Below, one piece after another: positions 13,872 to 34,194 of a stretch of DNA of 64,000 nt. The notes below the pieces were generated by a model. That model was not told where the DNA came from. It saw only the letters and a program-made list of their open reading frames with translations, and did not search any database. Made by a program: the position numbers and the translations under genes. The stretch is taken from the IMG/VR virus record IMGVR_UViG_3300042314_000343, positions 1 through 64,000 of that record; one strand, 5' to 3'. This DNA comes from a virus. Position 1 is the stretch's first letter. Every line of letters starts with the position of its first letter.

Positions 13872-14261
13872 GTGAGTTATAAAGAAGATATTTTAAGACT
13901 GAGGCTAGAAGGAAAAACCTATAGCCAGATCAGTGAAGAGCTTGGTTGCTCAAAGGGAACAATCGCATACTATATGAAACAGCAAAATGAGGAAGAGGTT
14001 ACTGTGTCAGACATCAACAATGAGTTCTACAGCAAGGTTATTGCATACGTTGATAACTTTAAGGAGAAGCGACCATGTAATGATTGTGGACAATACCTCC
14101 ACAAGAGTCAGCTAGATGCACTATCGCCATCAGCTCTTCATGAGATTGCCAGTGCTGTTTTTGATAAGAAAACTTTTGAAGAGTCAAAGCGTAGGATTTC
14201 GCAGCTAAAGTTTGTTTGTGCTAACTGCAACAGGCTAAGAGAGTTTAAGGCTAACAATTAG
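13872..14261 (+). CDS. HTH + degenerate HNH protein
   Basis: GKTYSQISEELGCSKGTIAY HTH; CNDC...VCANCN. Confidence 0.7.
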   Translation: MSYKEDILRLRLEGKTYSQISEELGCSKGTIAYYMKQQNEEEVTVSDINNEFYSKVIAYVDNFKEKRPCNDCGQYLHKSQLDALSPSALHEIASAVFDKKTFEESKRRISQLKFVCANCNRLREFKANN

Positions 14262-19758: not shown

Positions 19759-19821
19759 TGTCTTTTGTCAATACCCTGCATGTAACGGTTTGATAACATT
19801 TGGAGCCCCCAGGGGCCCCTC

Positions 19822-19893
19822 AAACAAAAAACTGGTAGAAGATTACGAATACCCCAGTTGCAATAACCGAAAGACGCATATCTCCTACCAGTA
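19822..19893 (-). ncRNA. Candidate small RNA
   Basis: - strand TTGACT-N17-TACAAT promoter, 13-bp stem with a G-U pair on the - strand, U-rich tail. Confidence 0.6.
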
Positions 19894-19907
19894 GTTCTAT
19901 TGTAGCA

Positions 19908-20174
19908 CTACTCCACTACGAAGTCAAGCAAATCATCCAAAGTTTCAAAGCCTGTGTCTTCTTTAATATTTAAACCAGCAAGCAAGACATCGAATGCCTC
20001 CAGGACAAAACCCTCTGCGGTTTCGTTTGCCTTAACCAGACCATTAGAGATTAGGTAAGCCAGTGGCAGTCCAAGATCGTTATACTCCATGAAGTCTTTG
20101 AATTGCTCTTCCCCACGATAGTCCATCCATAAGTCTGCTAGGATACTTATCTTTGCTTCTTTAGTAGTCTCCAT
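19908..20174 (-). CDS. Hypothetical protein (paralog of next gene)
   Basis: Shares N(D/I)x(G/S)LPLA motif with 20177-20464. Confidence 0.75.
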   Translation of the reverse strand: METTKEAKISILADLWMDYRGEEQFKDFMEYNDLGLPLAYLISNGLVKANETAEGFVLEAFDVLLAGLNIKEDTGFETLDDLLDFVVE

Positions 20175-20176
20175 TA

Positions 20177-20464
20177 CTATACCGCCTCTGGAATCGTTAG
20201 TGTCATTATTCGTGTTGGAACCTTTGTAGTTTCATACACAAGGTCAGTTACATCTTCAAGACCACGCTCATCTGCAATCTGCTTGGCGTGTTCGTATGTC
20301 AATCTTAGGTTCTCAGCACCCTTGTCTGTCAAGGTAGCAAATCCGAAATCAACTGCGAATGCCAGCGGTAGAGAAATGTTCTCTTGGTTTACCCACTCAA
20401 TAACATTTGGGTTCTCATCGTGCTCTGTGCCAATGAATGATAGTGCCTTGATAATTTCTTCCAT
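20177..20464 (-). CDS. Hypothetical protein
   Basis: Start moved to MEEIIK (leaderless); the track ATG overlaps the TATAAT box. Confidence 0.7.
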   Translation of the reverse strand: MEEIIKALSFIGTEHDENPNVIEWVNQENISLPLAFAVDFGFATLTDKGAENLRLTYEHAKQIADERGLEDVTDLVYETTKVPTRIMTLTIPEAV

Positions 20465-20494
20465 AGTATCCATTATACCCTTACCCTCCGACTT

Positions 20495-20704
20495 TTAGAA
20501 CAGACTTGTCTGCTCGTATGCGTTTTCTTTTTCCCACTCTGCTGACTCAGTTACTACTAGCAATCTGTTGTAATGGACATTCTGCATTCTTGCTATGTTT
20601 CTTCCTACTTCGTCAAGGTTGATAGTAATTGGTTCTAGCAACTGAACAATCTGCTCTGCTACTTTTTCTTCTCTGCTCTTTGGTAATCGTCTGCTTCTTG
20701 CCAT
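20495..20704 (-). CDS. Hypothetical protein
   Basis: AAGGAGAG SD; TTGACA-N17-GATAAT promoter. Confidence 0.75.
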   Translation of the reverse strand: MARSRRLPKSREEKVAEQIVQLLEPITINLDEVGRNIARMQNVHYNRLLVVTESAEWEKENAYEQTSLF

Positions 20705-20864
20705 TTGGTTGCTCTCCTTGTGTCCATTATCTCATAAGTTGTAGAGGGTGTCAAGGAAGAAAGTAGGAAATCCTTGACACCCCCTGTGTGATACGATGAG
20801 CGACCCCTCACTCATTTGCCGTATCACGTCCCACTGGAGTAGTCTCGACAGTGGGAATCTTTGT

Positions 20865-21251
20865 TTAGTTAGTTAGTCTATCGCCATAGTTACCAGACTC
20901 CAGGTCCTCCCAGTACTTTGGCAATCGATCGAAATACTCTTTGAGTCTGTCTGAAAGCTTGCTCCAGTAGTTCTTTCGGAATTCCTCCAAGCCGTACCAT
21001 AGGTCAGCCTCATCTTTAAAGTAATCATCTCTATTAAATCCAATAGACTGAATCTCTTCAGCTGTTAGGTCAATAGGGTCATCCCACTCATCTTGGTTAC
21101 CGTCCTTATATGCATAGACGTGAATCTTCCAGGACGCTGGGTCAAAGTAGCTATCGCCCTTGTCCTCGTCGTACTCTTCAGGCATGAAGATATTGAGGTC
21201 CCACTCAATGTGCTCCTTGCCTGCATTCTTATTACGCTTATCCAACATAGT
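20865..21251 (-). CDS. Acidic hypothetical protein
   Basis: Track ORF 20865-21308; start uncertain, likely near the upstream stop. Confidence 0.6.
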   Translation of the reverse strand, partial: TMLDKRNKNAGKEHIEWDLNIFMPEEYDEDKGDSYFDPASWKIHVYAYKDGNQDEWDDPIDLTAEEIQSIGFNRDDYFKDEADLWYGLEEFRKNYWSKLSDRLKEYFDRLPKYWEDLESGNYGDRLTN

Positions 21252-21630
21252 TTGTGACATATCCACTACCCTCACATTTCTCACAGTCTGGGTCTCCCCA
21301 GTTATCATTACGCTTTACTAGAACATCTTCTTCTTCGCTGTAGCACTCGCACTCTTCTTCCACGGAAAGAAGAACATAGTCGTCCTCGTCTTCCCAAGGA
21401 ACCTCACAGACATAATAGCTAAGTCTGTTTACAAATGAGTAGCCTGCAACAATAAGTGTTGACAAGTCTGCGTCAACAAGTGTCCAGACATACCTCTGGT
21501 CTAGAGACCTGACATAGTCAACCTCTTCACCATAGGTTTCGAACTGTTGCTCATCATGCTTCCTAAAATGATTAGTCTTAGGCTTGAACTTTGCTTCCCA
21601 CTCTGCCCAACCCTGATACTCTGTTGCCAT
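21238..21630 (-). CDS. Hypothetical protein with C-terminal Cys motif
   Basis: AGAAAGTAGGAAAT leader; CEC...CEKCEGSG. Confidence 0.75.
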   Translation of the reverse strand: MATEYQGWAEWEAKFKPKTNHFRKHDEQQFETYGEEVDYVRSLDQRYVWTLVDADLSTLIVAGYSFVNRLSYYVCEVPWEDEDDYVLLSVEEECECYSEEEDVLVKRNDNWGDPDCEKCEGSGYVTNYVG

Positions 21631-21643
21631 TATTTCCTACTTT

Positions 21644-22168
21644 CTAAAAATGGAAGTCTACAAATACAAGATACCAGTTTTTGTTGCCTGTGTCAATACT
21701 TTCCAACATATATTTTGTATTGGTTGTCTCGTGATACATGTCGTAGAAGTAAGAGTTGAAATCCCACTTGCCCTGTGTCATGTCAATCATCTTGTGTAGG
21801 TCATACAGCTGGAACCCAAAGTCCATTTGTCCGTTATAGCTATCAAGAACACTGTTTATATCAACATTCTTATTGTTGAAAGTTTGGCGGTAGCGATTGA
21901 ATTCCACCATACGTTCTGCAATAGCTTCATCGACAGTATCAAGAAACTTCTTAGGCTCTTCATCATATGAGATAGTCATAGACTGGTCTTCTTCATCATA
22001 GACGTCGCTACCGTTGTCATTCCAACGTCCGCCTCCAGTTATAAACCAGTCATACCAAGAGGATAGGTTATACTCGTCACCCATTTCATTCTCAAGATAA
22101 TCTTTGACTAAACGGAATGCGTGGTCTTTGTCTTCTGCTTGAACTGCTATACGTTGCAATACGTGCAT
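21644..22168 (-). CDS. Hypothetical protein
   Basis: WYDWFITGGGRW...VDFHF; AGAAAG leader. Confidence 0.8.
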   Translation of the reverse strand: MHVLQRIAVQAEDKDHAFRLVKDYLENEMGDEYNLSSWYDWFITGGGRWNDNGSDVYDEEDQSMTISYDEEPKKFLDTVDEAIAERMVEFNRYRQTFNNKNVDINSVLDSYNGQMDFGFQLYDLHKMIDMTQGKWDFNSYFYDMYHETTNTKYMLESIDTGNKNWYLVFVDFHF

Positions 22169-22189
22169 GGGGTTACTTTCTACTAGGGT

Positions 22190-22414
22190 CTAGAATATAT
22201 TATACGCTGAAAAGTCTGAATTGTCAACAGCGAATCTCTGTGCATTCATCCACGCTGCTTCGCCAAAGAAATACTTAGGCTTGCCAGAAACTGGGGAAAC
22301 TTTATAGAAGTCGTAATACTTGTCTGCCTCATATACTGAGACACCACTGTTGTGGAAGATCCTGGTCCACGTTGTGGATCCAACGGATGGTTTCTTAGAT
22401 ACGTGTACTTGCAT
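22190..22414 (-). CDS. Hypothetical protein
   Basis: MQVHVSKK start coupled to the upstream 32-aa ORF. Confidence 0.65.
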   Translation of the reverse strand: MQVHVSKKPSVGSTTWTRIFHNSGVSVYEADKYYDFYKVSPVSGKPKYFFGEAAWMNAQRFAVDNSDFSAYNIF

Positions 22415-22512
22415 TATTCTCCATAACACTTAGGGCAAATTTCATTGGTGTCTTCAAATGAATAGTAAAAGTTACCGTCTACTATTGGTGCTTCGCATTC
22501 ATAGCACTTCAT
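22414..22512 (-). CDS. 32-aa CxxC...CxxC microprotein (not in ORF track)
   Basis: MKCYECEAP...ICPKCYGE*; AGAAAGTAGGA leader, TTGACT-N17-GATAAT promoter. Confidence 0.65.
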   Translation of the reverse strand: MKCYECEAPIVDGNFYYSFEDTNEICPKCYGE

Positions 22513-23453
22513 GAAATCCTACTTTCTTGATACTCAATTATCTCAGAAACTGGGGAAAAAGTCAAGAGGTTCTTAATAGGTATTTTATGACAGTCAGTAC
22601 TGCTTGTCATGATTGCCTGGATCTGGGCCCCCCCGAAGGGGTACCTTAGTTAGATAAAATCGATGATGTCACCATCAAAACCACCCATATCCAAGTCGAA
22701 CATAAGGTCACGATAAGAAATTTCTCCATTAGCTGCCATCTCAAATAGTTCTACTACTTGCTCGTTGTCCATTAGTCATCCTTTTCTTGTAGGGAAGCAA
22801 TTAGTATACCAAGAACCTGTCTTGGTGTCAAGATGTCTAGTGCTGGATTGTCCATAGCACTTTCAATTATTTTGATGGCATAGGCAAGTCCATCTTCCAT
22901 ACCTGCCTCGTAGCCAATCTGCTCCATCTCTGATACAGCCATTAGCAACTCCCATCGTTAGGAATCTCATTCTCTGGCACACCCATCATACGCAATACTG
23001 ATTGGCTTCTGTCAATGACCCCAATAATGTAATCAGAAAAACTATCGTTTATGTCAAGTTCATTCTGCTGAATCATTAGGTCAAGAATGTCTGTCTTCAG
23101 ATAGTCAATGATTTCTTCATTAGTCTTCAACAACTGTTGCCTCCCATACTCCGTCAGGTAGATTAGCGTGATACTCTAGTGCTAGGTCAATAGCCTCGTC
23201 TTCGTCTAATGCTTCCACATCATACTCACAAACATAAGTAACTAGATACTTCTTCATTACACATTCTCCAACATCTCTGCTAGTCGCTGCAATTGTTCTG
23301 GGGTAAGGCTGTTTAGAACATCCTCGTTGATTAGATTACTGTTAGTCCAGTCACTCACTTATTCCTACTTTCTCTCTCAGTTCCTCGTCTGACAAGGATA
23401 CTATTTTATCAAGACCCTCTGACATTATTACATCCAGCAGTTTGCGAAAGTTC

Positions 23454-23702
23454 TCAATCATTCCAGCCAGCCTCTTCTTCTAATGTATAAGGGTTTAGTT
23501 TGTGATTGAAATACATTTCTTGGCACGGCATACAGAAACCAAGTTCCTCGTGCCATACATCTTCTTCTACCTGTGTTCCGCAATAAGCAAATCTATTACA
23601 GGGTAGATAACCATTAGACTCATACTCTTGGTTACCCTCACAGATACGACAGAACGGGTTGCAGTCAAAACTACCATTGTGGTTGGGGCATACTTTTATC
23701 AT
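23454..23702 (-). CDS. Cys-rich hypothetical protein
   Basis: Leaderless MIKVCPNH after TGTCAT-N10-TATAGT; the track start lies inside the promoter. Confidence 0.7.
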   Translation of the reverse strand: MIKVCPNHNGSFDCNPFCRICEGNQEYESNGYLPCNRFAYCGTQVEEDVWHEELGFCMPCQEMYFNHKLNPYTLEEEAGWND

Positions 23703-24377
23703 AGTATCCACTATAGCAGGGGGGTATGACATTATAGAATCTCCACTTCAACGGCCTGGTTCAACTCACCATACTTTACAAAGCTATAGATATCGTCAAT
23801 GTACGATGCCCTGACATATTCCAGCAGGTCTTCTTTGGTCAGATTCTCCATTATCGGATCCTCGTCTGGGTAGTAATCAAAAGTAATACTAGCTCTGATA
23901 ACCCTACTCATACATACCATCCTGAATCTATCTTTACAAAGTGTGTAAGCTTAGCTACCTTATTAGCAATGTAGGTTCCATTGCGTCTTGCCTTAGCTCT
24001 TGATACTGTCATCGGTGTCTCCTACAGGTAGCTTCTTTGTGTCCCATTTTCTTGGCGGTAGATAGCCAAGACTTATAACAACCCATACATACATAAGAAT
24101 CATACGGGTCACCCTTCTTCTTCATAAGATAGATAGTACCGTCACCGTAAGTTGGTAGGTCATCCCTCCAAGACTTAGTCTTCATCTTCCCACTCTTCCC
24201 ACTCTTCTACATAACGCTCAACAGCTTCACATAGAGCTTCCCAAGCTGAATCCGAAAGGTATTCAGGTCTTTCAATGGTAAAGGTATCACTCATCGTCTT
24301 CCTCACTATCTCCATTATCAAAGCCTATCTCACGAAAGAAAGAATCCCATACTCCTCCTGGAGTTGGTTCCCAAGTG

Positions 24378-24569
24378 TTACTCACCATCTTCGTCTTCCT
24401 CTTCCTCGTCTAGTTCCTCAACATCAATAGAGTAAACGCCGTCATAAGTGATTGCGTTGTCATAAGTGTCACCCCAAGATGTCCAAGCCAATTCCTCAGC
24501 GTGTTCCTTTGAATCTGCCTCAATCTCTCCAGCAAAATCAACTTTCATTTGAACATAAAATCTAGCCAT
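24378..24569 (-). CDS. Acidic hypothetical protein
   Basis: GGAAAGGA SD, own -26-type promoter. Confidence 0.75.
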   Translation of the reverse strand: MARFYVQMKVDFAGEIEADSKEHAEELAWTSWGDTYDNAITYDGVYSIDVEELDEEEEDEDGE

Positions 24570-24735
24570 TAGATTTCCTTTCCTACTTGCTTACAAGTAT
24601 AGGGGTAGGGTCTGACATTATCAAGAGATTCTGGGAAATATTTTGTAAGGTTCTTAAAGGTTTATTTGTGAGTAAAAGGTTTGATATACATTGATGGGTT
24701 CTGGGGCCCCCGATCGAACATGCCAAAAGTGGAAT

Positions 24736-24762
24736 GGGCAGTTTTACTACATACCCAGGTAG
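24736..24762 (-). ncRNA. 27-nt H-type pseudoknot, copy 1
   Basis: CTAC-CT-GGGTA-T-GTAG-TAAAAC-TGCCC just 3' of the DUF932 stop. Confidence 0.7.
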
Positions 24763-24768
24763 GAATAC

Positions 24769-25767
24769 TTAGTTAGCCAAAACCAACTGAAGCAAGCGGT
24801 TTTTCTCTGCTGTGGTCACAGGGTCGAAACCAGATGCAGCAGCGAGAATACTCTCGTTAGTTCCACCTCGTGCTGAGCGATACCAATCCAAGCGTTCGGT
24901 TAGAGCGTTGAAAGCACCCCACTTGGTTCCAGCAATGGTGTTGTTGAAGTCACCAACATAGATACCGTTGATTAGGTCAATCTTGTCGTTGTGCTTCTTG
25001 AATGAACCCTTAGCGTCTTTCTCTGGTGCAGGGTAAGCAAGAGCAACAATCTTGTCGAACTGTGCCTTGGTGATTTCGGTCTCAATCATAGCTTTTGCCA
25101 TTTCATCGAACTTGTCCATATAAGCATTTGCCAAGCCTAATGCCTCACGTGCCTGCTGAACCTTGCCAGAAGCGGTAGCGGTGTGGCGAATCTTGAAGGT
25201 CTGCTTGATACCCTTGTTGCCCTTGCCAAGTGCTAGGTTTAGAGTGTTTGCACAGACAACACGCACAGGTGTAATGCTTGCCTGAATTGCCACTGAACCA
25301 TCGTGAGAGGTGTTGATTAGAAGATAAGTGTTTACCTTATCAGACACGCCGTTAGGGTCAAGAACGGTTTCACGCTCAAGAGCAAGCGAACCAAAAACCT
25401 GTCGTCCTCCCTTGATAGAACCAGCGGTCTCCCAGCGACCTCCGCCGTCTAGCATTAGGTCTCCAAAGTCAAATAGGTCTTCGTTCTGCAATGGAACATA
25501 ACGCTCACCAACTACGCCAAGAACATCGTTCTTAGTGTTGTCGAATGGGTTAGTGCGAGTGACAAAAGAGTAAGCCTTGTCAGAGGTGAAGGTGTCTGGA
25601 ATTGCTACGTCCTCTAGGCGAACATTCCACTTGTCAAGGTGTGCCAGCTTTAGCATTTCTGCGGTGGTAACTTCCTCAGTGAAGACAGTGCCAAGTCCGT
25701 GCCAAGCAGGTTCACGCAAAGAAGCAAAAGAGGTCTGTCCGTTTACGGTTTCTAGTTCGTGTGCCAT
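24769..25767 (-). CDS. DUF932 (TIGR03299-like) phage/plasmid protein
   Basis: MAHELE, PAWHGLG, ETAGSIKGGRQVF, NTSHDGS, TPVRVVCANTL, IRHT. Confidence 0.88.
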   Translation of the reverse strand: MAHELETVNGQTSFASLREPAWHGLGTVFTEEVTTAEMLKLAHLDKWNVRLEDVAIPDTFTSDKAYSFVTRTNPFDNTKNDVLGVVGERYVPLQNEDLFDFGDLMLDGGGRWETAGSIKGGRQVFGSLALERETVLDPNGVSDKVNTYLLINTSHDGSVAIQASITPVRVVCANTLNLALGKGNKGIKQTFKIRHTATASGKVQQAREALGLANAYMDKFDEMAKAMIETEITKAQFDKIVALAYPAPEKDAKGSFKKHNDKIDLINGIYVGDFNNTIAGTKWGAFNALTERLDWYRSARGGTNESILAAASGFDPVTTAEKNRLLQLVLAN

Positions 25768-25949
25768 ATGATTTCTTTCTGTTGGGGATTACTGATAAGA
25801 CAATTATACAGTGTAGGTCTGACATTGTAAAGAATCTGGGGAAAAATAATTAGACATCTTAAATAACGTTTTGGTTACGATCATTGATCTGGTGGCTGGG
25901 GGGCCCCACAACTACCCCCAGACTGTCAAGTCCAGGGGTAGCGTGTTGG

Positions 25950-26498
25950 TTACCTAACTAATTGAGAATCCTTACAGCTCACAAGGTAGTCATCTACGCT
26001 CATCTCACGAATGCTCTCAAAAGCCAAGACTAGAGAGATGTCCCAAGAACCCTTATACTTACTAAACTGGGTGTGGAAAAGTTCTCTGTCCAAGTCTACG
26101 GTGTAGATACCCTCGCAGAACAACTCGTCATTCTCAAACTCTAAGTCTCTGACAATAGGGATAGGGGAATCGTCCCAGTCAGCGATTACCCTGAAAATCT
26201 CTCCACCAGTATCTCTGGTTAGAGTTGGAAACTGCTCCGCAAACTTCTTGCCAGAATCCATAGACATAGACCCGTCCATAACTCCGTCCTGAAATGGCTT
26301 TAGAAGTGCTTCCACATCAGAGTCGCTGGGGTAGTAAATCTGTGGAATCTTATCAATAAAAGCCTTCACCACATCAGGGTTAGTCAGGGTATGGAATAGG
26401 GTAACACCCTGTCCCTCTGGATAGTGGTCCCATTGTCCATACTGGGCAACGATAACCTGATTCTTGTAGATAACCTTAGTTAGTCCTCTAGTTCCCAT
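25950..26498 (-). CDS. Hypothetical protein
   Basis: MGTR...YGQWDHYPEGQG; own promoter and SD. Confidence 0.8.
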   Translation of the reverse strand: MGTRGLTKVIYKNQVIVAQYGQWDHYPEGQGVTLFHTLTNPDVVKAFIDKIPQIYYPSDSDVEALLKPFQDGVMDGSMSMDSGKKFAEQFPTLTRDTGGEIFRVIADWDDSPIPIVRDLEFENDELFCEGIYTVDLDRELFHTQFSKYKGSWDISLVLAFESIREMSVDDYLVSCKDSQLVR

Positions 26499-26545
26499 TA
26501 TTCCTACTTTCTATTTAGATTATTATAAACTGGGGGTATGACATT

Positions 26546-26749
26546 TTAGAAGTCAACTAGAATGTCTTGGTCTACTCGTCTACCATACTCAAAAGCCAAG
26601 TTCTCGTCAATGATTTCTATTTCACCAGAACCATTGTCCCACTCCTCAGCAACGCTGGCTGGTAGGTCATCGGTGTCAAGAACATAGATAACACGGTTAG
26701 GCTGGTATTCCCACCAGTCACCATTCTCGTTTGCGATAAAAATTGCCAT
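26546..26749 (-). CDS. Hypothetical protein
   Basis: Start moved to MAIFIANE after AGAAAGGA. Confidence 0.75.
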   Translation of the reverse strand: MAIFIANENGDWWEYQPNRVIYVLDTDDLPASVAEEWDNGSGEIEIIDENLAFEYGRRVDQDILVDF

Positions 26750-27013
26750 TTGTATCCTTTCTTTAGTTATCTTATTATGACACAACCCTCTGACATTATC
26801 AATATCCAGCTTTTGGGGGGCCCCCGATCCAGGCAAAGAAAAACCACCCAAGCGAGGGTATCAGGTAGTATCATTTCTGACCTATGCTTCAACCGATAGC
26901 AGGGTGGTGTTCTTCGCCTCACAGCCTTGCGGTATTGCTAATGCTTGTTTCTTGTATCGTGGAAACCACCACGCTTGTAAGCCGTTGCCTAGGACACTTA
27001 CAAGAGGTCTAGT

Positions 27014-27040
27014 GAGCAGTTTAGACACTTGCTCAGGTGT
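27014..27040 (-). ncRNA. 27-nt H-type pseudoknot, copy 2
   Basis: ACAC-CT-GAGCA-A-GTGT-CTAAAC-TGCTC just 3' of stop at 27047. Confidence 0.7.
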
Positions 27041-27046
27041 GTCCCC

Positions 27047-27502
27047 TTAGATAAGGTCAATCACAGAGGAGTAGGAACTTGCGTTCACTTCCTCTTGAGA
27101 GGTCATCTTTAGGATACGAAGGTTCTTCTCAAGAATTGCCTTACGGGTGGTGTATTCCCTGCCAAAGTGCTGGTTGGTGTTTGGCTGTTCTGGCTTTACA
27201 GGCTTCTTTGGGAAGTTGGCAATAACTGAGATGTCCAACTCAATCTCAAACTTGTTCTGAGAGTAGTGGTTCTGAACTAGACGAATGGTGCTGTCATACT
27301 CAAAGCCAATCTTGTCAGCGTTGTTAGTGATGTAGTTGGTGGCAAACTTAGTTACCTCAGACTTGTATGCCTCTAGGTCTGCCTCATACTGCTTTACCTT
27401 CTCAGGGTAAGACTCAACATCAGCGTCAATCTGGGCAATAGTTGCCTCAATGTCAGCGATTAGAGCAGAGGTTGGGATTTTTACGGAAAGGGTTCTAGCC
27501 AT
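27047..27502 (-). CDS. Hypothetical coiled-coil protein
   Basis: Own promoter and AGAAAG leader. Confidence 0.8.
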   Translation of the reverse strand: MARTLSVKIPTSALIADIEATIAQIDADVESYPEKVKQYEADLEAYKSEVTKFATNYITNNADKIGFEYDSTIRLVQNHYSQNKFEIELDISVIANFPKKPVKPEQPNTNQHFGREYTTRKAILEKNLRILKMTSQEEVNASSYSSVIDLI

Positions 27503-27589
27503 TTCTTTCTACTTTCTTTTGGGTTAGTTACATTATAGGGGAAGGGTGTGACATTTTGGGTAGTTTATTGTGATACCCAGCACATCTGC

Positions 27590-27811
27590 CTAGAAAATAC
27601 CGAATACCTTCTTGCGAGGTTCAGTAATAGTCTTGACAATGACCTTTGGTTCTGGCATAGCCAAGAAACGGGTCTGGTTGGTAGCACCATCAAAAGTGCC
27701 GTTTGGGTTGCGAACAACTGCCTTGATACCTTCGCCAGACTTGGTGTTCCAAATCTCGGTGCGAACTTCTAGGCGTTGGTTTTTCTTCTGTGAAATAATC
27801 TTTCCAGACAT
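27590..27811 (-). CDS. Hypothetical basic protein
   Basis: Own promoter and GAGGA SD. Confidence 0.7.
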   Translation of the reverse strand: MSGKIISQKKNQRLEVRTEIWNTKSGEGIKAVVRNPNGTFDGATNQTRFLAMPEPKVIVKTITEPRKKVFGIF

Positions 27812-27920
27812 TTTATTCCTCTTTCTTTTCAGGGTAGTTCTATTGTAAAGGTGGGGTATGACATTTTAGTAAGAGGGGGGATAGAGAAAGGATAAGAAAC
27901 GCTATCCCCCCAAGACTAAA

Positions 27921-28067
27921 TTACTTTACAGTAGTCCAGCGGTCTTGACCATTTACATCAAGACGAACACGGAACGAACCCGTCTTGTTCTGGATTACTT
28001 CCTGAATTACACCTGACACGCCAGACTTAGCGGTGGTGAACTGTGAGCCAACAGTTAGAGTGTTCAT
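27921..28067 (-). CDS. 48-aa SH3/KOW-like microprotein (not in ORF track)
   Basis: MNTLTVGSQFTTAKSGVSGVIQEV...RWTTVK* with AGGAAG SD. Confidence 0.65.
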   Translation of the reverse strand: MNTLTVGSQFTTAKSGVSGVIQEVIQNKTGSFRVRLDVNGQDRWTTVK

Positions 28068-28273
28068 TTTGCTTCCTATTCCGCCCCAGAGGGACTGTTT
28101 TGATTATTTACCAACTTTTGTTGATAGGTCTATTATGCCAGAAAAATGAATAAACCACAAGAGGGAAACACTATTTTCTTTACAAAGTTTTGGGGGATTT
28201 TTTGTAGGTTTCGTAAATTGACAAGCAGTAGGCTGGGGGGGGCTCCGTTAGATCTTTGGGGGCCCCGAAAGGT

Positions 28274-28300
28274 GGCCAGTTTTACGTCATGGCCAGGACG
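28274..28300 (-). ncRNA. 27-nt H-type pseudoknot, copy 3
   Basis: CGTC-CT-GGCCA-T-GACG-TAAAAC-TGGCC. Confidence 0.7.
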
Positions 28301-28363
28301 TGGTCCGCAATGCATGTTAGTTAGAAAGGATATGCGGACCGTCCCATATTCCCCTATGAGAAT

Positions 28364-29080
28364 TTACTTTTTAGACCTAGAGAATAGGATGTCATTACGC
28401 TCATAGACACACTGGCCACAGGTAACGCAGGCAGAACCCTTATCACTAATTAGTTTTAGTTTCTTGTTGTTTTCAGGGCAGGGCACAGCAGACTTTACAG
28501 TTATCTCTAGCATACGCTCTTTGCCAGCTGCAAAGTTTTCTGCAAGGTATGCAAGCTTGACGCCAGTAGTTGCTTTTAGCTTACTTGCCAATTCAAAGTT
28601 AGCGTCATCAGCTGAAAAGTAAAGTGCTAGGTTTGGAATGTTCTGCAATACAGGAACCGCAAAGTCGCTGCGAGTGTATACCCAGAATTGAGTATCAGAA
28701 TGCTTTTTGATTACGGTTGCCCAAGCAATGGCATACTGAACACTAAAGAAGTCGCCGTCCCAGTGAATGCGAAACAGCTTGTCTGCATTACGCTTGTCAC
28801 AGTCTTTCTTGAAGTCAATAATCATCTCATCAAGCAACATAACCATTTGAGGATACTTAGCGTCCTTGAGTTGGTTCCAATTGTCAACTAGAATGTCTTT
28901 AACACCCTTGTAAATTCTTTCAAGGTTGCCAGCATAACAAATTTTTTCGCAAACGGATGTTGCTCCAGGGCATGAGTAAGCCTTGCCAGAAGGCAGACCA
29001 AAGGTGTTGGCAATGGTTGGCGTCTTACCGTTAGGGGAGACGGCGTTGGTTACTTTTCTATCTTTTGAACGTCTTAGCAT
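28364..29080 (-). CDS. GP88-like (radical-SAM-related) phage protein
   Basis: SCPGATSVCEKICYA, FRIHWDGDFF, WVYTRS, ACVTCGQC; start MLRRSK after GAAAGGA. Confidence 0.75.
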   Translation of the reverse strand: MLRRSKDRKVTNAVSPNGKTPTIANTFGLPSGKAYSCPGATSVCEKICYAGNLERIYKGVKDILVDNWNQLKDAKYPQMVMLLDEMIIDFKKDCDKRNADKLFRIHWDGDFFSVQYAIAWATVIKKHSDTQFWVYTRSDFAVPVLQNIPNLALYFSADDANFELASKLKATTGVKLAYLAENFAAGKERMLEITVKSAVPCPENNKKLKLISDKGSACVTCGQCVYERNDILFSRSKK

Positions 29081-29176
29081 TTGGGGGAATCCTTTCAACT
29101 AACTACAGTATAGGATATGGGTCTGACATTTTTAGCAGCATGTCTATGATCTGGGGGGCCCCCGAAGGGGTAGAGG

Positions 29177-29825: not shown

Positions 29826-31077
29826 TACTTTACCAACTTTCTTGCTGAGGGGTGTCCAACTCTTATAGCATAGCATTGGGGGCAGACATTTATTGTTTTG
29901 ATAGTGAATAGGTTTCTAGTTAGTTTGTTACAGTCAAAGCAGTTGTAGTTAGTCATTTCGCAACTCCCAACCATTTATCCAGCCAGCCTCATACCAACCC
30001 TTTACCAAGTCAATAGTTTCCTGCTTGCTTGCCTCATCAACCCAGATAGGGGATTCGCTAAAGTCCTTGTGAATTGCTACTACCTTCATTAGTTGCCACT
30101 TTCTCTAATAGCCTTGTTTTTGTTACTCTGGCGTGTGCCTTTGTATTTGTCTGGGGTGACAATTTGCTTCTTGCCAGCCTTTAGCATTTGTCCAAATAGT
30201 GCTTGGCTCTCAGCCTTGCGTCTTGCTTCATTTCTTTTACCTAACATACCTGAAGTATAACAGGATGGTCTGACATTTTGGGGATATTTTTTAATGTTTC
30301 GTAAGAAAATTTTTGGGAAAATTTCGGGGGCTCTCTTAAAGAGTTCTTAAAGATATTTATAGATCATGCCCAGGGTGATCTGGTGGATCGGGGGTAGGCG
30401 GTTGGGGTACCCTCCTAGTCGAAGGCGTACCTAGAGGCATACAGTTCACCGATAGCCTGCTCCTCCCGAAGGCGAGCCTGAGCCAAGTCAGACTTAGCCT
30501 GCTCCTCTGGGGAGAGAGTCTCCTCCTCCCAGAAGTCGTCGTCCAGCGACCAGCCAAAATCCTGTGCCATATCTTCCATAGTTTATCCTCTCTAACCTAC
30601 CTATAACCTATCACACCCCACGGACATTTAGCAACATTGGTTTATAACAGTTTGATAACGGGGGGCCCCATTCGGGCGTGTCGTTTAGAACTCAGGTCGC
30701 TCGCAGTCGCCGTATTCGTGTCCACAGCAAGGGTAGTCTTCACATCTCATAGTTTATCCTTTCAATTACTTATAGATTACATCAGGGGTCAGACTTTTAT
30801 CGATCCTTGGCCTGGGCCCCCGAAACTCAAGATTTGTCAAATCCTGGTTCGGCGTGTCGCCTAGAATGGTGGCTTGTTTCTTTCCACACCCTTGCGGTAG
30901 CCAACTCCGTGAGCAACTACAAACACTAGGGCAACTAGGACTAGGTCTACTAGTAGGTTGAATCCGTTGTAAAAAATCATCTCTATCTACTTTCTTCTGT
31001 TAGGAATAGCTTATCAGGGGTATCAGACAACATCAAGTCTATTTTCCAAATTAGTTCTTCTAGTTCTGCAATAGTCA

Positions 31078-31227
31078 TTATACCAACTCCAAGTATTCTT
31101 CTGGGAATGTTTCACCAAGATAAGACTTGGCATCTCTCAAGGGCATTAGTCCCTTGTAGTCGTTGCACTCGTGGCAAACATAGTCGTTCACCAAGTTCAT
31201 ACAAAACACGCAAATCTGTTCTGACAT
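31078..31227 (-). CDS. Small CxxC/CxxC protein
   Basis: MSEQICVFC...CHEC; the track start lies in the ATGTCAG promoter element. Confidence 0.7.
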   Translation of the reverse strand: MSEQICVFCMNLVNDYVCHECNDYKGLMPLRDAKSYLGETFPEEYLELV

Positions 31228-31276
31228 TTTTACCTTCTTTCTATTTGTTATAAACTTATCGGCAGGGTCTGACATT

Positions 31277-31486
31277 TTAGTTCAGACTATTTAGCAATTC
31301 TAGGTTTCTTAGGCTAGCTCCAGGCTTGGAGAAGTCTAGCTCTCTGGTAAGTAGCACCTTACGCTGACGGCACACGCCAAGAGTGTGAGTAGTCTCCCAC
31401 AACTTCTTGTCTAGGCGGTAAGAGACATTGGTGGTCTGAGACATACCGCACCCGTTGCAGGTGGTCTTGCGATACATTGTGGTCAT
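31277..31486 (-). CDS. Small Cys-containing protein
   Basis: MTTMYRKTTCNGC; the track start lies in the ATGTCAG promoter element. Confidence 0.7.
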   Translation of the reverse strand: MTTMYRKTTCNGCGMSQTTNVSYRLDKKLWETTHTLGVCRQRKVLLTRELDFSKPGASLRNLELLNSLN

Positions 31487-32325
31487 TGGGATACCTTTCT
31501 TTCTAACTACTACAAACCTAGCACATAGGTCTGACATTTATGAGTAGCGTTTGGTAACAGTTTGGTAACATTGCTAAATCCTATATCTAGTGGGTGCAAG
31601 ATCTTTCGGCACTACATATTGTGGGGGGGCCCGAAACCAGGGGATCTGTCAAATCGACACGCCGTGTTTTACCAACTTTTCTTGGTGCCGAGTGACTTAG
31701 CCAATTTGATTAGGTCAGATACCTGCTTGATTTCTGAATCATCTGGAATTCTATCCCCAATGATTTCAATCATTATGTCAATCTCACGCTCAACCTCTGA
31801 TAGGGAGAGAATGTCTAGCTTGCGAAAGTTCTCCATTAGTTTACCTCCTCTGGCTTTAGGTCTACCAAGCCAAGTCTAATCTGGGTGAGAGTATACTCAA
31901 CCATAGCCTCTTCCATAGCGGTTAGGTCACGCTCTAGGACACCCTGCAACTTTGCTACTAGGATACCCTTGGTCTCATCTGTGATTTTTGCTTGTAGCAT
32001 TTATTCCTTCTTTCTAACTTATCTAAAATCTAGCATAGGGGTCTGACTTTTTACTTACTTACTGACTCGCAGTAGAAGCAGTCATCTGAAATTGTCTGAG
32101 GAACAATTCCGTGAAACTCGCAGTTGTAGGCTACATCCCTACCATTTACTTTCTTAGTTTCTACATTTTTCATTTATTTATCCTTTCTTTATCTACCTAT
32201 AGTCAATCAGATAATTAGTCATTTGTCAAGCTTATTTAGGTAAACATTAGGTAAACAATTTGTAACAGATAGGTAACGACGGGGGCCCACAAAAAACCTG
32301 GTATGTCAAGTGACACGCCCTACAT

Positions 32326-32532
32326 CTAGTACAGGCTTGTACTAAACATAGGCTTGACCAACTCAACAGGGTCTTTAGCCTCAACTAAAGTGTAGTCAGA
32401 CACCTTGTTAGGCTTGTCTGAACACTCGTGAAAGTCAAAGGCTGACTTAGCCATACGGAGATTGGAAGCGATCTCCTCATTACCGCAAGAGTCGCACTCT
32501 ACTAGGTATCCACTCGTTGTAACTCTGAACAT
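32326..32532 (-). CDS. Small zinc-binding protein
   Basis: CDSC...HEC; AGAAAGGATAA SD; own promoter. Confidence 0.75.
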   Translation of the reverse strand: MFRVTTSGYLVECDSCGNEEIASNLRMAKSAFDFHECSDKPNKVSDYTLVEAKDPVELVKPMFSTSLY

Positions 32533-33089
32533 TATTTATCCTTTCTAACTACCTATACACTAACAGGTAGGTCTGACATTTTTAGTTAGCACCTAGGTTG
32601 ACGATAGAACCGTCTTCCAACTCAATGCGATATCCCTGAATCTCTAGGTTCCAGTAAGCCTTAGTGTAGAAGCCAATAACCTCAGCCTTGTGCTGTGGGT
32701 CAAAGCCATAGGTGGTCTCAGTGTTGTCGTTGTTTCTGGTAGTTACTAGCATTTCTTTTATCCTTTTTCTTTCTTTCTTTATACTTATACTATAGTGCCT
32801 ATGGGCGACATTATTAGACTGAATTGCTTGTTATTTAGGTTAACATTAGGTTAACAATGGGGCCCCCATTTCGGGGTACTTGTCAAGCTACCTAAGACTA
32901 GTAACGAAGTAGAGTAAGACTAAAGGTATCGATCTCACCAGTACGAACCATCTGAGTGTAAGCATCGAATGCAGTGTAGTAGTGCTCAGGGTCGAAGAAG
33001 TATTCGGTTCTGATTCCGTCTTTTAGAACTGTTGCTTTCATTTCTATCCTTTGTTTGATAAGTCTATTATGGGGTAGGTGTCTGACTTT

Positions 33090-33299
33090 TTAGTTGGTGA
33101 ATCCTGGTAGCTTGATGAATGACTCACCGTCTGCCATTGCACAAGCAAAAGTCTCATCGCAGTAGCCGTAGTCTGGAATTCCTGTATACTCAGCAGAACA
33201 AGTGTCGCACACTACGAACACGCCCTCACACTGAACGGTATACATAGTGCCGTCTAGCAACTTTACCTGAGTTCCCTTGTTCTCTACTACTACTGACAT
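33090..33299 (-). CDS. Small Cys-rich protein
   Basis: C...CDTC...C...C; AAGGAAAG SD; own promoter. Confidence 0.75.
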   Translation of the reverse strand: MSVVVENKGTQVKLLDGTMYTVQCEGVFVVCDTCSAEYTGIPDYGYCDETFACAMADGESFIKLPGFTN

Positions 33300-34194
33300 T
33301 TGCTTTCCTTCTTTCTTGATACTTATAATTTAGTAGATGGCACTGACATTGTCAAATTAAACACACATTATTGTGTAACATTTTTATAACAGCAGGGGCC
33401 CACAAAAAAATCGGTATGTCAAGCGACACACCTCATTCCTTTAGAGTATTAGTGGATTTCTCCATACTCTTCCCAGCAACCTGGGCAAGCATACTCGCCC
33501 TCCTCTGCTACGAAGATTTTTTCTACTACTACATCACATAGTTCACAAGTTGAAAACATTTTTTATCCTTTCTATGTTTTTCTTTATTTATCTTTATATA
33601 CATATTCAATCACAGAAATGGCTGTTTGTCAAGTCTATTTGCGTGTTTCTAAATGAACGTTAGGTTAACAAATCATTGGGGTGGCACGGGTGCTCTTGGA
33701 TCTTGAACCTGGATGTGTGCTCACTAAAAAAGAGTTGTTTTCTTTTAAAAATCATGCATCATACATCTCTGCAAAATATTCAGATTTTGGTCATTTTGCT
33801 TTTTAAAATTTTTTTCAGAATGCTCCAGGAGGCAAAAATATATTTTTTCAGATTTTGCAAGTATCTATTATAACAATTCGATAACGAAATAGTAACATAG
33901 CACAAATTTGGGTATATATTATAACGTTTTGGTAACATTTATATAAACATTCTGTTATTTTTGGGGGTATAATAGATCTATGAGTGAAACTCCAGTAAAG
34001 AACAATCCAGAATGCAAGTGTGAAAGCTGCAAGTGTGGAAAGAACTAGTCTTCTTTAGAATATAAACAAGACAATTGCTCTGATAGATGCTATCCAGGCA
34101 TAAACTATTGCTGCGTATCCAGCTAACCTAAGAAATTTCTTTATTTTCATACTATTAGTGTATCAAAATTCGACGGTACACAATGGCGAAGCCA

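Follow-up and report, generated by a model that had tools for sequence, protein, structure and literature searches.

Promoter-shaped elements with a GC block in place of a −10 box at the ends of small early genes in an uncultured actinobacterial phage

A −35 hexamer at a fixed distance from a GC block

In the phage record IMGVR_UViG_3300042314_000343 of IMG/VR (103,317 nt, G+C 43%), of which positions 1–64,000 were analysed and are referred to here as the window, a minus-strand block of very small genes contains a repeated composite element. It begins like a promoter, with the −35 hexamer TTGACA, and continues with GGGCCC at the place where a −10 box should stand. What is such a site for, if not for starting transcription? 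In the interpretation that we prefer, and to which we assign a probability of roughly 0.4, the elements are cassette-boundary (punctuation) modules of the early region and not transcription start sites, and their design resembles that of the early promoter–stem-loop elements (PeSLs) of phage T4.

When the window was scanned for TTGACA followed by GGGCCC after 13–17 nt, six copies were found, all on the minus strand, against 0.00 expected from 100 shuffles. An initial annotation of this DNA had reported TTGACA at a fixed 17–18 nt from the GGGCCC centre at five sites. This held at all five, with 18 nt in four copies (gap of 15 nt at 30814, 32283, 32860 and 33396) and 17 nt in the 31627 copy (gap of 14 nt); a sixth copy, absent from that annotation, lies at 25901–25929 and has a 17-nt gap. 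GGGCCC occurs at 13 sites in the whole genome, all between 19813 and 33396 and all intergenic in the minus-strand small-gene block, and the TTGACA–GGGCCC composite is likewise confined to this block genome-wide. At the −10 position, 17 nt after TTGACA, the copies read GCCCC(C) or similar, in agreement with the earlier claim of GCCC(C). Judged as σA promoters, the six copies have a perfect TTGACA, but none of the window copies has TAnnnT 16–18 nt after it. No consistent −10 box was found at longer distance beyond the GC block, and a promoter listing of the window contained none of the elements.

The element can be described as having four parts: a box of 8–9 nt (GGCGTGTC or its complement), CTTGACA as the −35, a spacer of 15 ± 1 nt, and a GC-only, roughly palindromic block. 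It starts at or directly behind the stop codon of a small early gene and stops short of the regulatory region of the next. The box GGCGTGTC was found 7 times in the window against 0.67 expected. Its coordinates in the initial annotation were correct: as GACACGCC it lies 2–3 nt from TTGACA at 31656 and 32312, at 33425 it reads GACACACC, and it stands in the opposite orientation at 30675 and 30851. The exact box is missing from two of the six TTGACA copies, one having no box and the other ACACGC only. The elements and the other GGGCCC cores were the following:

33396–33432, minus strand: element 1, with box GGTGTGTC (33425–33432), TTGACA (33417–33422), U7 (33404–33410), GTG and GGGCCC (33396–33401)
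32860–32886, minus strand: element 4, with TTGACA (32881–32886) and GGGCCC (32860–32865), no box
32283–32320, minus strand: element 2, with box GGCGTGTC (32312–32319), TTGACA (32304–32309), U6 and GGGCCC (32283–32288)
31627–31664, minus strand: element 3, with box GGCGTGTC (31656–31663), TTGACA (31647–31652), a 14-nt spacer containing GATC, and GGGCCC (31627–31632)
30814–30861, minus strand: element 5, with stop codon, box CGACACGCC (30851–30858, plus-strand reading), TTGACA (30835–30840) and GGGCCC (30814–30819)
30663–30684, minus strand: minimal element, with stop codon, box CGACACGCC, a short loop and GGGGCCCC, no TTGACA
25901–25950, minus strand: sixth TTGACA element, a 14-bp hairpin with TTGACA (25924–25929) at the apex, then GTG and GGGGCCCC
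19813–29161, minus strand: six other GGGCCC cores without TTGACA on the gene strand, starting at 19813, 22625, 24704, 26818, 28260 and 29156

The minimal form, without TTGACA, was also found in relatives. A second core beside 28260 has a TTGACA on the plus strand (28218). GATC is close to most of the GC cores, being within 20 nt of those at 22625, 24704, 25901, 26818, 28260, 29156, 30814 and 31627.

Spacing and core in related loci

Genes identified in the phage include those for a WhiB, a prohead protease and a portal protein, the last with 47% identity to the portals of Streptomyces BE-type phages. No near-identical DNA was found among GenBank phages; closer relatives number in the hundreds in IMG/VR. 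Eighty IMG/VR loci (L081–L160, 1.31 Mb), retrieved with the DUF932 protein encoded at 24769–25767 and oriented so that their plus strand corresponds to the minus strand of the window, are the family loci referred to below.

At unique TTGACA sites of the 80 loci, a core matching GGN[CG][CG]NCC followed after 13, 14, 15 and 16 nt in 14, 33, 77 and 11 cases, respectively, whereas any other gap between 0 and 60 nt was seen at most 4 times. Six control hexamers gave no comparable peak, with at most 7 cases at any gap. The initial annotation had stated beforehand that a spacing not conserved in related phages would speak against it; since a gap of 13–16 nt is kept across the relatives, with its peak at 15 nt, this objection falls away. 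The reported pattern is genuine, lies well outside chance expectation and is conserved.

The consensus of 110 distinct elements is aCTTGACAa, 12 variable nt, TGt and GGTCGNCCC. In these copies and in the window the −10 position reads GCCCC or GGNCGNCC, never TAnnnT. The GC-only pseudo-palindrome after TTGACA in the related loci is GGNCGNCC, for which the window equivalent is GGGGCCCC. Only the closest loci have many GGGCCC sites (12 in L081, 8 in L084 and 7 in L085), and L082, in which the DUF932 protein is 91% identical, has none; at the equivalent position other loci carry different GC-only blocks, such as GGTCGGCC, GGCCGACC, GGGCGGCC, GGTCGACC or GCCGCCC. A collection-wide scan for exact CTTGACA-N15-GGTCGGCC, with the N15 spacing alone, returned only 42 stretches, clustered at 4–6 copies per contig. 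The usual linker before the core in relatives is GGATCTG(T)G. As regards base composition, GC-only hexamers containing CCGG, GCGC or CGCG are almost absent from the 80 loci (for four palindromes, 83 occurrences each were expected and none was seen), which looks like restriction avoidance; GGGCCC and G/C runs are not depleted.

Core variants occur as reverse-complement pairs, and 40 of the 110 copies carry a further TTGACA on the opposite strand, 13–15 nt beyond the core, producing a 50-bp dyad, TTGACA-N15-core-N15-TGTCAA. Together with the fixed bipartite spacing and the lineage-specific core types, this symmetry is what an operator would show if a dedicated phage or host protein, as a dimer or as a two-domain monomer, read CTTGACA plus the palindromic core and thereby shut off or insulated early transcription. 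There is a precedent in the L5-type repressors, which bind more than 20 asymmetric 13-mers at promoters and in short intergenic gaps, oriented with transcription (PMC9283540). We nevertheless consider such an operator unlikely, as no candidate reader was found in the genome and the element TTGACA is flanked (C at −1 in 85%, A at +1 in 54%) in the same way as ordinary −35 hexamers, represented by 173 promoter-like TTGACA sites followed by TAnnnT, a ribosome-binding site (RBS) and ATG (C at −1 in 64%, A at +1 in 71%). Searches of the phage genome found no σ region 2, no ParB_N domain and no resolvase or other serine recombinase. The sole protein with a σ region 4-like helix-turn-helix (Sigma70_r4_2 type, 27.1 bits), a 129-residue product of an open reading frame (ORF) at 13872–14261 on the plus strand, was rejected as a reader, being absent from four of five complete element-bearing relatives. 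This ORF has an HNH-like C-terminal part, is patchy among relatives and resembles a mobile endonuclease gene. If the element is an operator after all, its regulator would still await discovery.

Sites of comparable appearance are the stoperators of Cluster A mycobacteriophages (PMC9283540, PMC6550527), which are also −35-like without a −10, recur in the short gaps between actinophage genes and are mostly oriented with transcription, and whose motif, like the present one, also stands at a real promoter. They differ in being single 13-mers bound by a known repressor of temperate phages, whereas the present elements have two parts (7 + 15 + 8 nt), often with dyad symmetry, neither a repressor nor an integrase-type gene was found here, and the relatives appear lytic. 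Only CTTGACA is shared with the 13-mer consensus, and no conserved dedicated DNA-binding protein was found.

Gene ends, hairpins and the upstream box

Elements begin at a stop codon or immediately behind it; in the family as a whole, TTGACA most often lies 0–25 nt from the stop codon. In short intergenic gaps of about 50 nt, the stop codon leads directly into a promoter of the form ATGTCAGAC-N8-TAnnnT, an RBS and ATG. In long gaps of 140–240 nt the element comes first, followed by two tandem 11-nt repeats and then by the same type of promoter. In this layout the elements stand at the 3' end of units that comprise one to three genes. The next promoters lie 40–110 nt beyond the elements, and every downstream gene has one of its own. 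In the window these include:

33327–33355, minus strand: real promoter downstream of an element, with TTGACA, a 17-nt spacer holding ATGTCAGTG, TAAATT, RBS and ATG at 33299
before the genes starting at 32752, 31486 and 30750, minus strand: ATGTCAGAC-N8-TAnnnT promoter sites similar to that at 33355–33327

Several regularities were noted in this promoter-proximal DNA. Between 19900 and 33400 on the minus strand, almost all small genes have AATGTCAGAC(C), 8 nt, TAnnnT and an RBS in front of them, a geometry resembling the mycobacterial PafBC/RecA-NDp promoter, and some copies have TTGACA immediately upstream. The two tandem repeats of about 11 nt (TGTTAnCnnAn, minus strand) directly follow the core at 32835–32858, 32236–32262, 31547–31569, 30637–30660 and 33366–33390; in many relatives two DnaA-box-like TGTGGATAAC units stand in their place. 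TGTCAA(G)TTTACGAA and TTTTCCCCAGAAT recur between core and next promoter (28180–28225 and in relatives), the former supplying the mirror-image TTGACA. An antisense TGTCAG-type promoter on the plus strand was considered and dismissed, since inspection by eye revealed no TAnnnT at the right place.

The presence of separate promoters also bears on the idea that the elements are themselves a true promoter class, in which an additional factor, be it a phage protein or a σ of alternative or extracytoplasmic function (ECF) type, uses the GC block as its −10 and gives each cassette group a second, differently timed start. The promoter-like geometry and the mostly genic orientation (72 elements on the gene strand vs 40 on the other) would suit this idea, TG is frequent 1 nt before the core, and some cores contain CGAC, which resembles ECF −10 motifs. 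It is improbable all the same: the downstream genes are each already promoted, transcription from mirror-image copies would run antisense into upstream genes, the −35 matches the housekeeping consensus and not an ECF type, and the genome search for σ region 2 was negative (see above).

At the RNA level, elements 1 and 2 are terminator-like, combining a hairpin with U7 and U6, and element 1 has the canonical form of an intrinsic terminator. Its 8-bp hairpin (33413–33432), in which GGTGTGTC pairs with GACATACC, has TTGACA at the apex; as RNA, the box GGUGUGUC pairs with GACAUACC around the loop GCUU, and U7 follows (−17.1 kcal/mol, z −2.07; on the terminator list). The stem of element 2 is weak (5 bp, with one C.A mismatch further out; z −0.95). 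In both copies (33425 and 32312) the box forms the 5' arm and pairs with GACA(U)ACC, of which GACA belongs to TTGACA, ahead of the run of U6–7. Element 5 forms a long hairpin with TTGACA at the apex (−22.9 kcal/mol, z −2.53), and the 25901 copy folds at −31.4 kcal/mol (z −2.59). Significant hairpins just after the gene were thus seen in elements 1 and 5 and the 25901 copy. They were weak or absent in element 2, in element 3 (no stable hairpin, z +1.95), in element 4, where a small GNRA-type hairpin, CCCC-GAAAU-GGGG, lies between TTGACA and core, and at the cores 24704, 26818 and 28260, which had no significant fold. A U run immediately behind the stem was seen in elements 1 and 2 only; in most family copies ATCTGTG stands in its place.

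The 71 gene-strand copies of the family had a mean fold z of −1.5, with 22 copies below −2. RNAalifold, applied to a motif-anchored alignment of 26 copies, gave no consensus structure because the stems are out of register, and cognate and non-cognate arms were therefore compared in its place. Cognate flanks paired at ≤ −15 kcal/mol in 38% of the 71 copies, against 6.7% for non-cognate flanks (Mann–Whitney p = 8e-4). Taking into account that the stem sequences differ between copies and that cognate arms pair nevertheless, these values show that the arms co-vary. A common stem sequence, as in repetitive extragenic palindromic (REP) or miniature inverted-repeat transposable (MITE) elements, was not found: stems differ even within one genome. 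Of the two strands, the sense strand gave the more stable fold in 43 copies and the antisense strand in 27, a difference clearest for long stems; this preference, which G.U pairs predict, points to a role in the sense RNA. No Rfam family matched between 19 and 36 kb of the window.

Could the elements then act in RNA only, as terminators, 3'-end stabilisers or processing hairpins similar to the RNase III sites of T7, TTGACA being merely a favoured loop sequence? Co-variation and strand preference would agree with this, as would the U runs in two to four window copies and the pairing of the box CGACACGC with GTG plus core in minimal copies. The position of the hairpin, however, varies: it is centred on TTGACA, lies between TTGACA and core, or is absent, and the 15-nt gap is the same in all three situations. 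About 55% of the family copies have no apex hairpin and yet keep the gap, and in RNA the distance between the motifs would change with the fold, remaining constant only on duplex DNA. A purely RNA role is for these reasons poorly probable. As in intrinsic terminators, elements 1 and 2 place a hairpin with a U run directly after the gene, and many family copies are stable GC-rich gene-end hairpins; in contrast, most copies lack the U run, some lack the hairpin, and sequence conservation extends to the loop and the downstream block.

In the homologous region of a cultured relative, Streptomyces phage Angela, the stop codon is followed by a hairpin, GGGCCC-TTCG-GGGCCC, and then by GTGT, a GC box and a promoter; TTGACA is missing, which makes hairpin and GC box the older part of the element. 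Throughout the early region of this phage (L161, 1–11271), each gap has a hairpin of the GGGCCC-TTCG-GGGCCC type, GTGT, a box close to CGGGCCCGGACA and a promoter with the −10 TAGACT.

The upstream box had been interpreted in the initial annotation as a GACAC box adjoining the −35. Its position stands, but only the 8-mer is enriched: the gene strands of the family loci contain 195 copies of GGCGTGTC and 144 of GACACGCC, where about 8 of each would be expected, i.e. about 20-fold in both orientations, whereas bare GACAC is not enriched (1159 seen, 1018 expected). CGTGTC peaks 9 nt and GACACG 18–19 nt before TTGACA; in the GACACG-type arrangement, as in minimal elements, the box pairs with GTG plus core. 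A CGTGT(C/T) box 2–5 nt before TTGACA was found at 59 distinct sites, 12 of which are real promoters and most of the others of which have a GC block, so that the same front half serves productive and non-productive sites. The module GGCGTGTC-N3-TTGACA also heads real promoters in relatives.

The initial annotation had proposed, among other possibilities, decoys that could titrate WhiA/WhiB-loaded polymerase and block host septation. What it said of WhiA and GACAC is correct, and both the strand of WhiA sites and their distance from the −35 do vary (PMC10243135); a WhiB gene is present in the phage, and the box does contain GACAC. Promoters activated by WhiA/WhiB, such as that of sepX (PMC10243135), also share with the elements a GACAC-containing motif beside the −35 and the actinobacterial setting. 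Unlike them, the elements have no −10, the enriched motif is an 8–9-mer, and its gap to the −35 is only 2–3 nt in one arrangement. Moreover, the box is accounted for as a hairpin arm (at 33425 and 32312) and is present at productive promoters too, two of the six TTGACA copies have no exact box, the elements stand at gene 3' ends, one third of the family copies carry a mirror-image TTGACA on the other strand, and related Streptomyces phages keep the hairpin and the GC box without TTGACA or the upstream box. The five letters of GACAC are all that connects the WhiA facts with the elements. The septation trap is unsupported, and a decoy function is the least supported and the most improbable of all the explanations considered.

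Proposed cassette boundaries

In the cassette-boundary interpretation the element would work in two layers. In RNA, the spacer of many copies forms a hairpin on the sense strand, either with the box or upstream flank or with the G-run of the block; we infer that this hairpin serves to terminate or protect the transcript of the preceding gene and to keep read-through away from the following promoter. Because the distance between TTGACA and the GC block is constant whatever the RNA fold, it must be a property read on duplex DNA. Host σA RNA polymerase is the simplest candidate reader, since no conserved phage reader was found; it may dock on the −35 at a GC block that cannot open, and the site would then act as an insulator or a local store. 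A broader proposal from the sequence would be that a large family of actinobacterial phages marks its early cassettes with non-opening promoter-shaped sites, a regulatory class of their own, which hold σA polymerase or another −35 reader in a closed complex as insulators, stores or sinks; this we would rather doubt than accept.

Several points weigh against cassette boundaries as we picture them. A U run is present in only two of the five elements of the initial list, and no significant hairpin was seen in element 3 or at three other cores; termination therefore cannot account for everything. Polymerase in a closed complex makes a weak roadblock, and the distance from element to next promoter is not phased. 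One third of the copies have a mirror TTGACA, which a simple gene-directed function does not explain, and the lineage-specific palindromic core also fits a co-evolving dimeric DNA-binding protein. The dedicated operator, the factor-dependent promoter and the purely RNA role are the rivals of the cassette-boundary interpretation.

Literature searches retrieved no earlier description of the composite element. The nearest known design is probably that of the T4-type PeSLs, which are stop-to-start composites between small orphan early genes and combine a consensus promoter with a poly-G/poly-C stem-loop shown to terminate (PMC2839356). The comparison is by design alone, as phage lineage and host phylum differ. 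In both cases repeated composite motifs lie between small, mostly orphan early genes and are, here tentatively, linked to cassette gain and loss, and an early promoter with a stem-loop fills the gap between small early ORFs. PeSLs have a σ70-type consensus promoter with a poly-G-then-poly-C stem-loop, often at or after the −35; here, by contrast, the −35-like hexamer stands beside a GC block without a −10, and the working promoter is separate, 40–110 nt downstream. The fixed distance of 15 nt between hexamer and GC block, the additional 8-mer box and the actinobacterial host also set the present elements apart.

PeSLs mark sites of cassette exchange (PMC2839356, PMC4122927), and this precedent raises the question of whether the elements are selected mainly as recombination linkers for cassette shuffling, with any effect on transcription secondary. 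Cassette order and content do differ between close relatives. Homology with L081, L084 and L085 ends within 15 nt of a core in 11 cases against 3.2 expected (3.4-fold), and three genes at 32173–31669 sit between two cores, their flanks being adjacent in L081. Over all 80 loci, however, breakpoints were not enriched near cores, homology often ends in intergenic DNA anyway, and shuffling leaves the exact spacing unexplained, so that a linker function as the main selected role is very improbable.

Whatever its reader, the element is a strongly conserved non-coding signal, with more than 100 distinct copies in related loci of abundant uncultured low-GC actinobacterial phages that are distantly related to Streptomyces BE-type phages. 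It illustrates how dozens of tiny early genes, each with its own promoter, are kept apart in such phages, and it is a clean case of an RNA hairpin overlapping a duplex-DNA motif. If polymerase is indeed held without opening, the element would be a natural closed-complex site, useful for studies of actinobacterial promoter melting and as an insulator part. As for the cassettes themselves, many of the genes in 30684–33559 (minus strand) encode products of 36–69 residues with two CxxC pairs, which are zinc-ribbon-like; examples start at 33559, 32173, 31486 and 31227.

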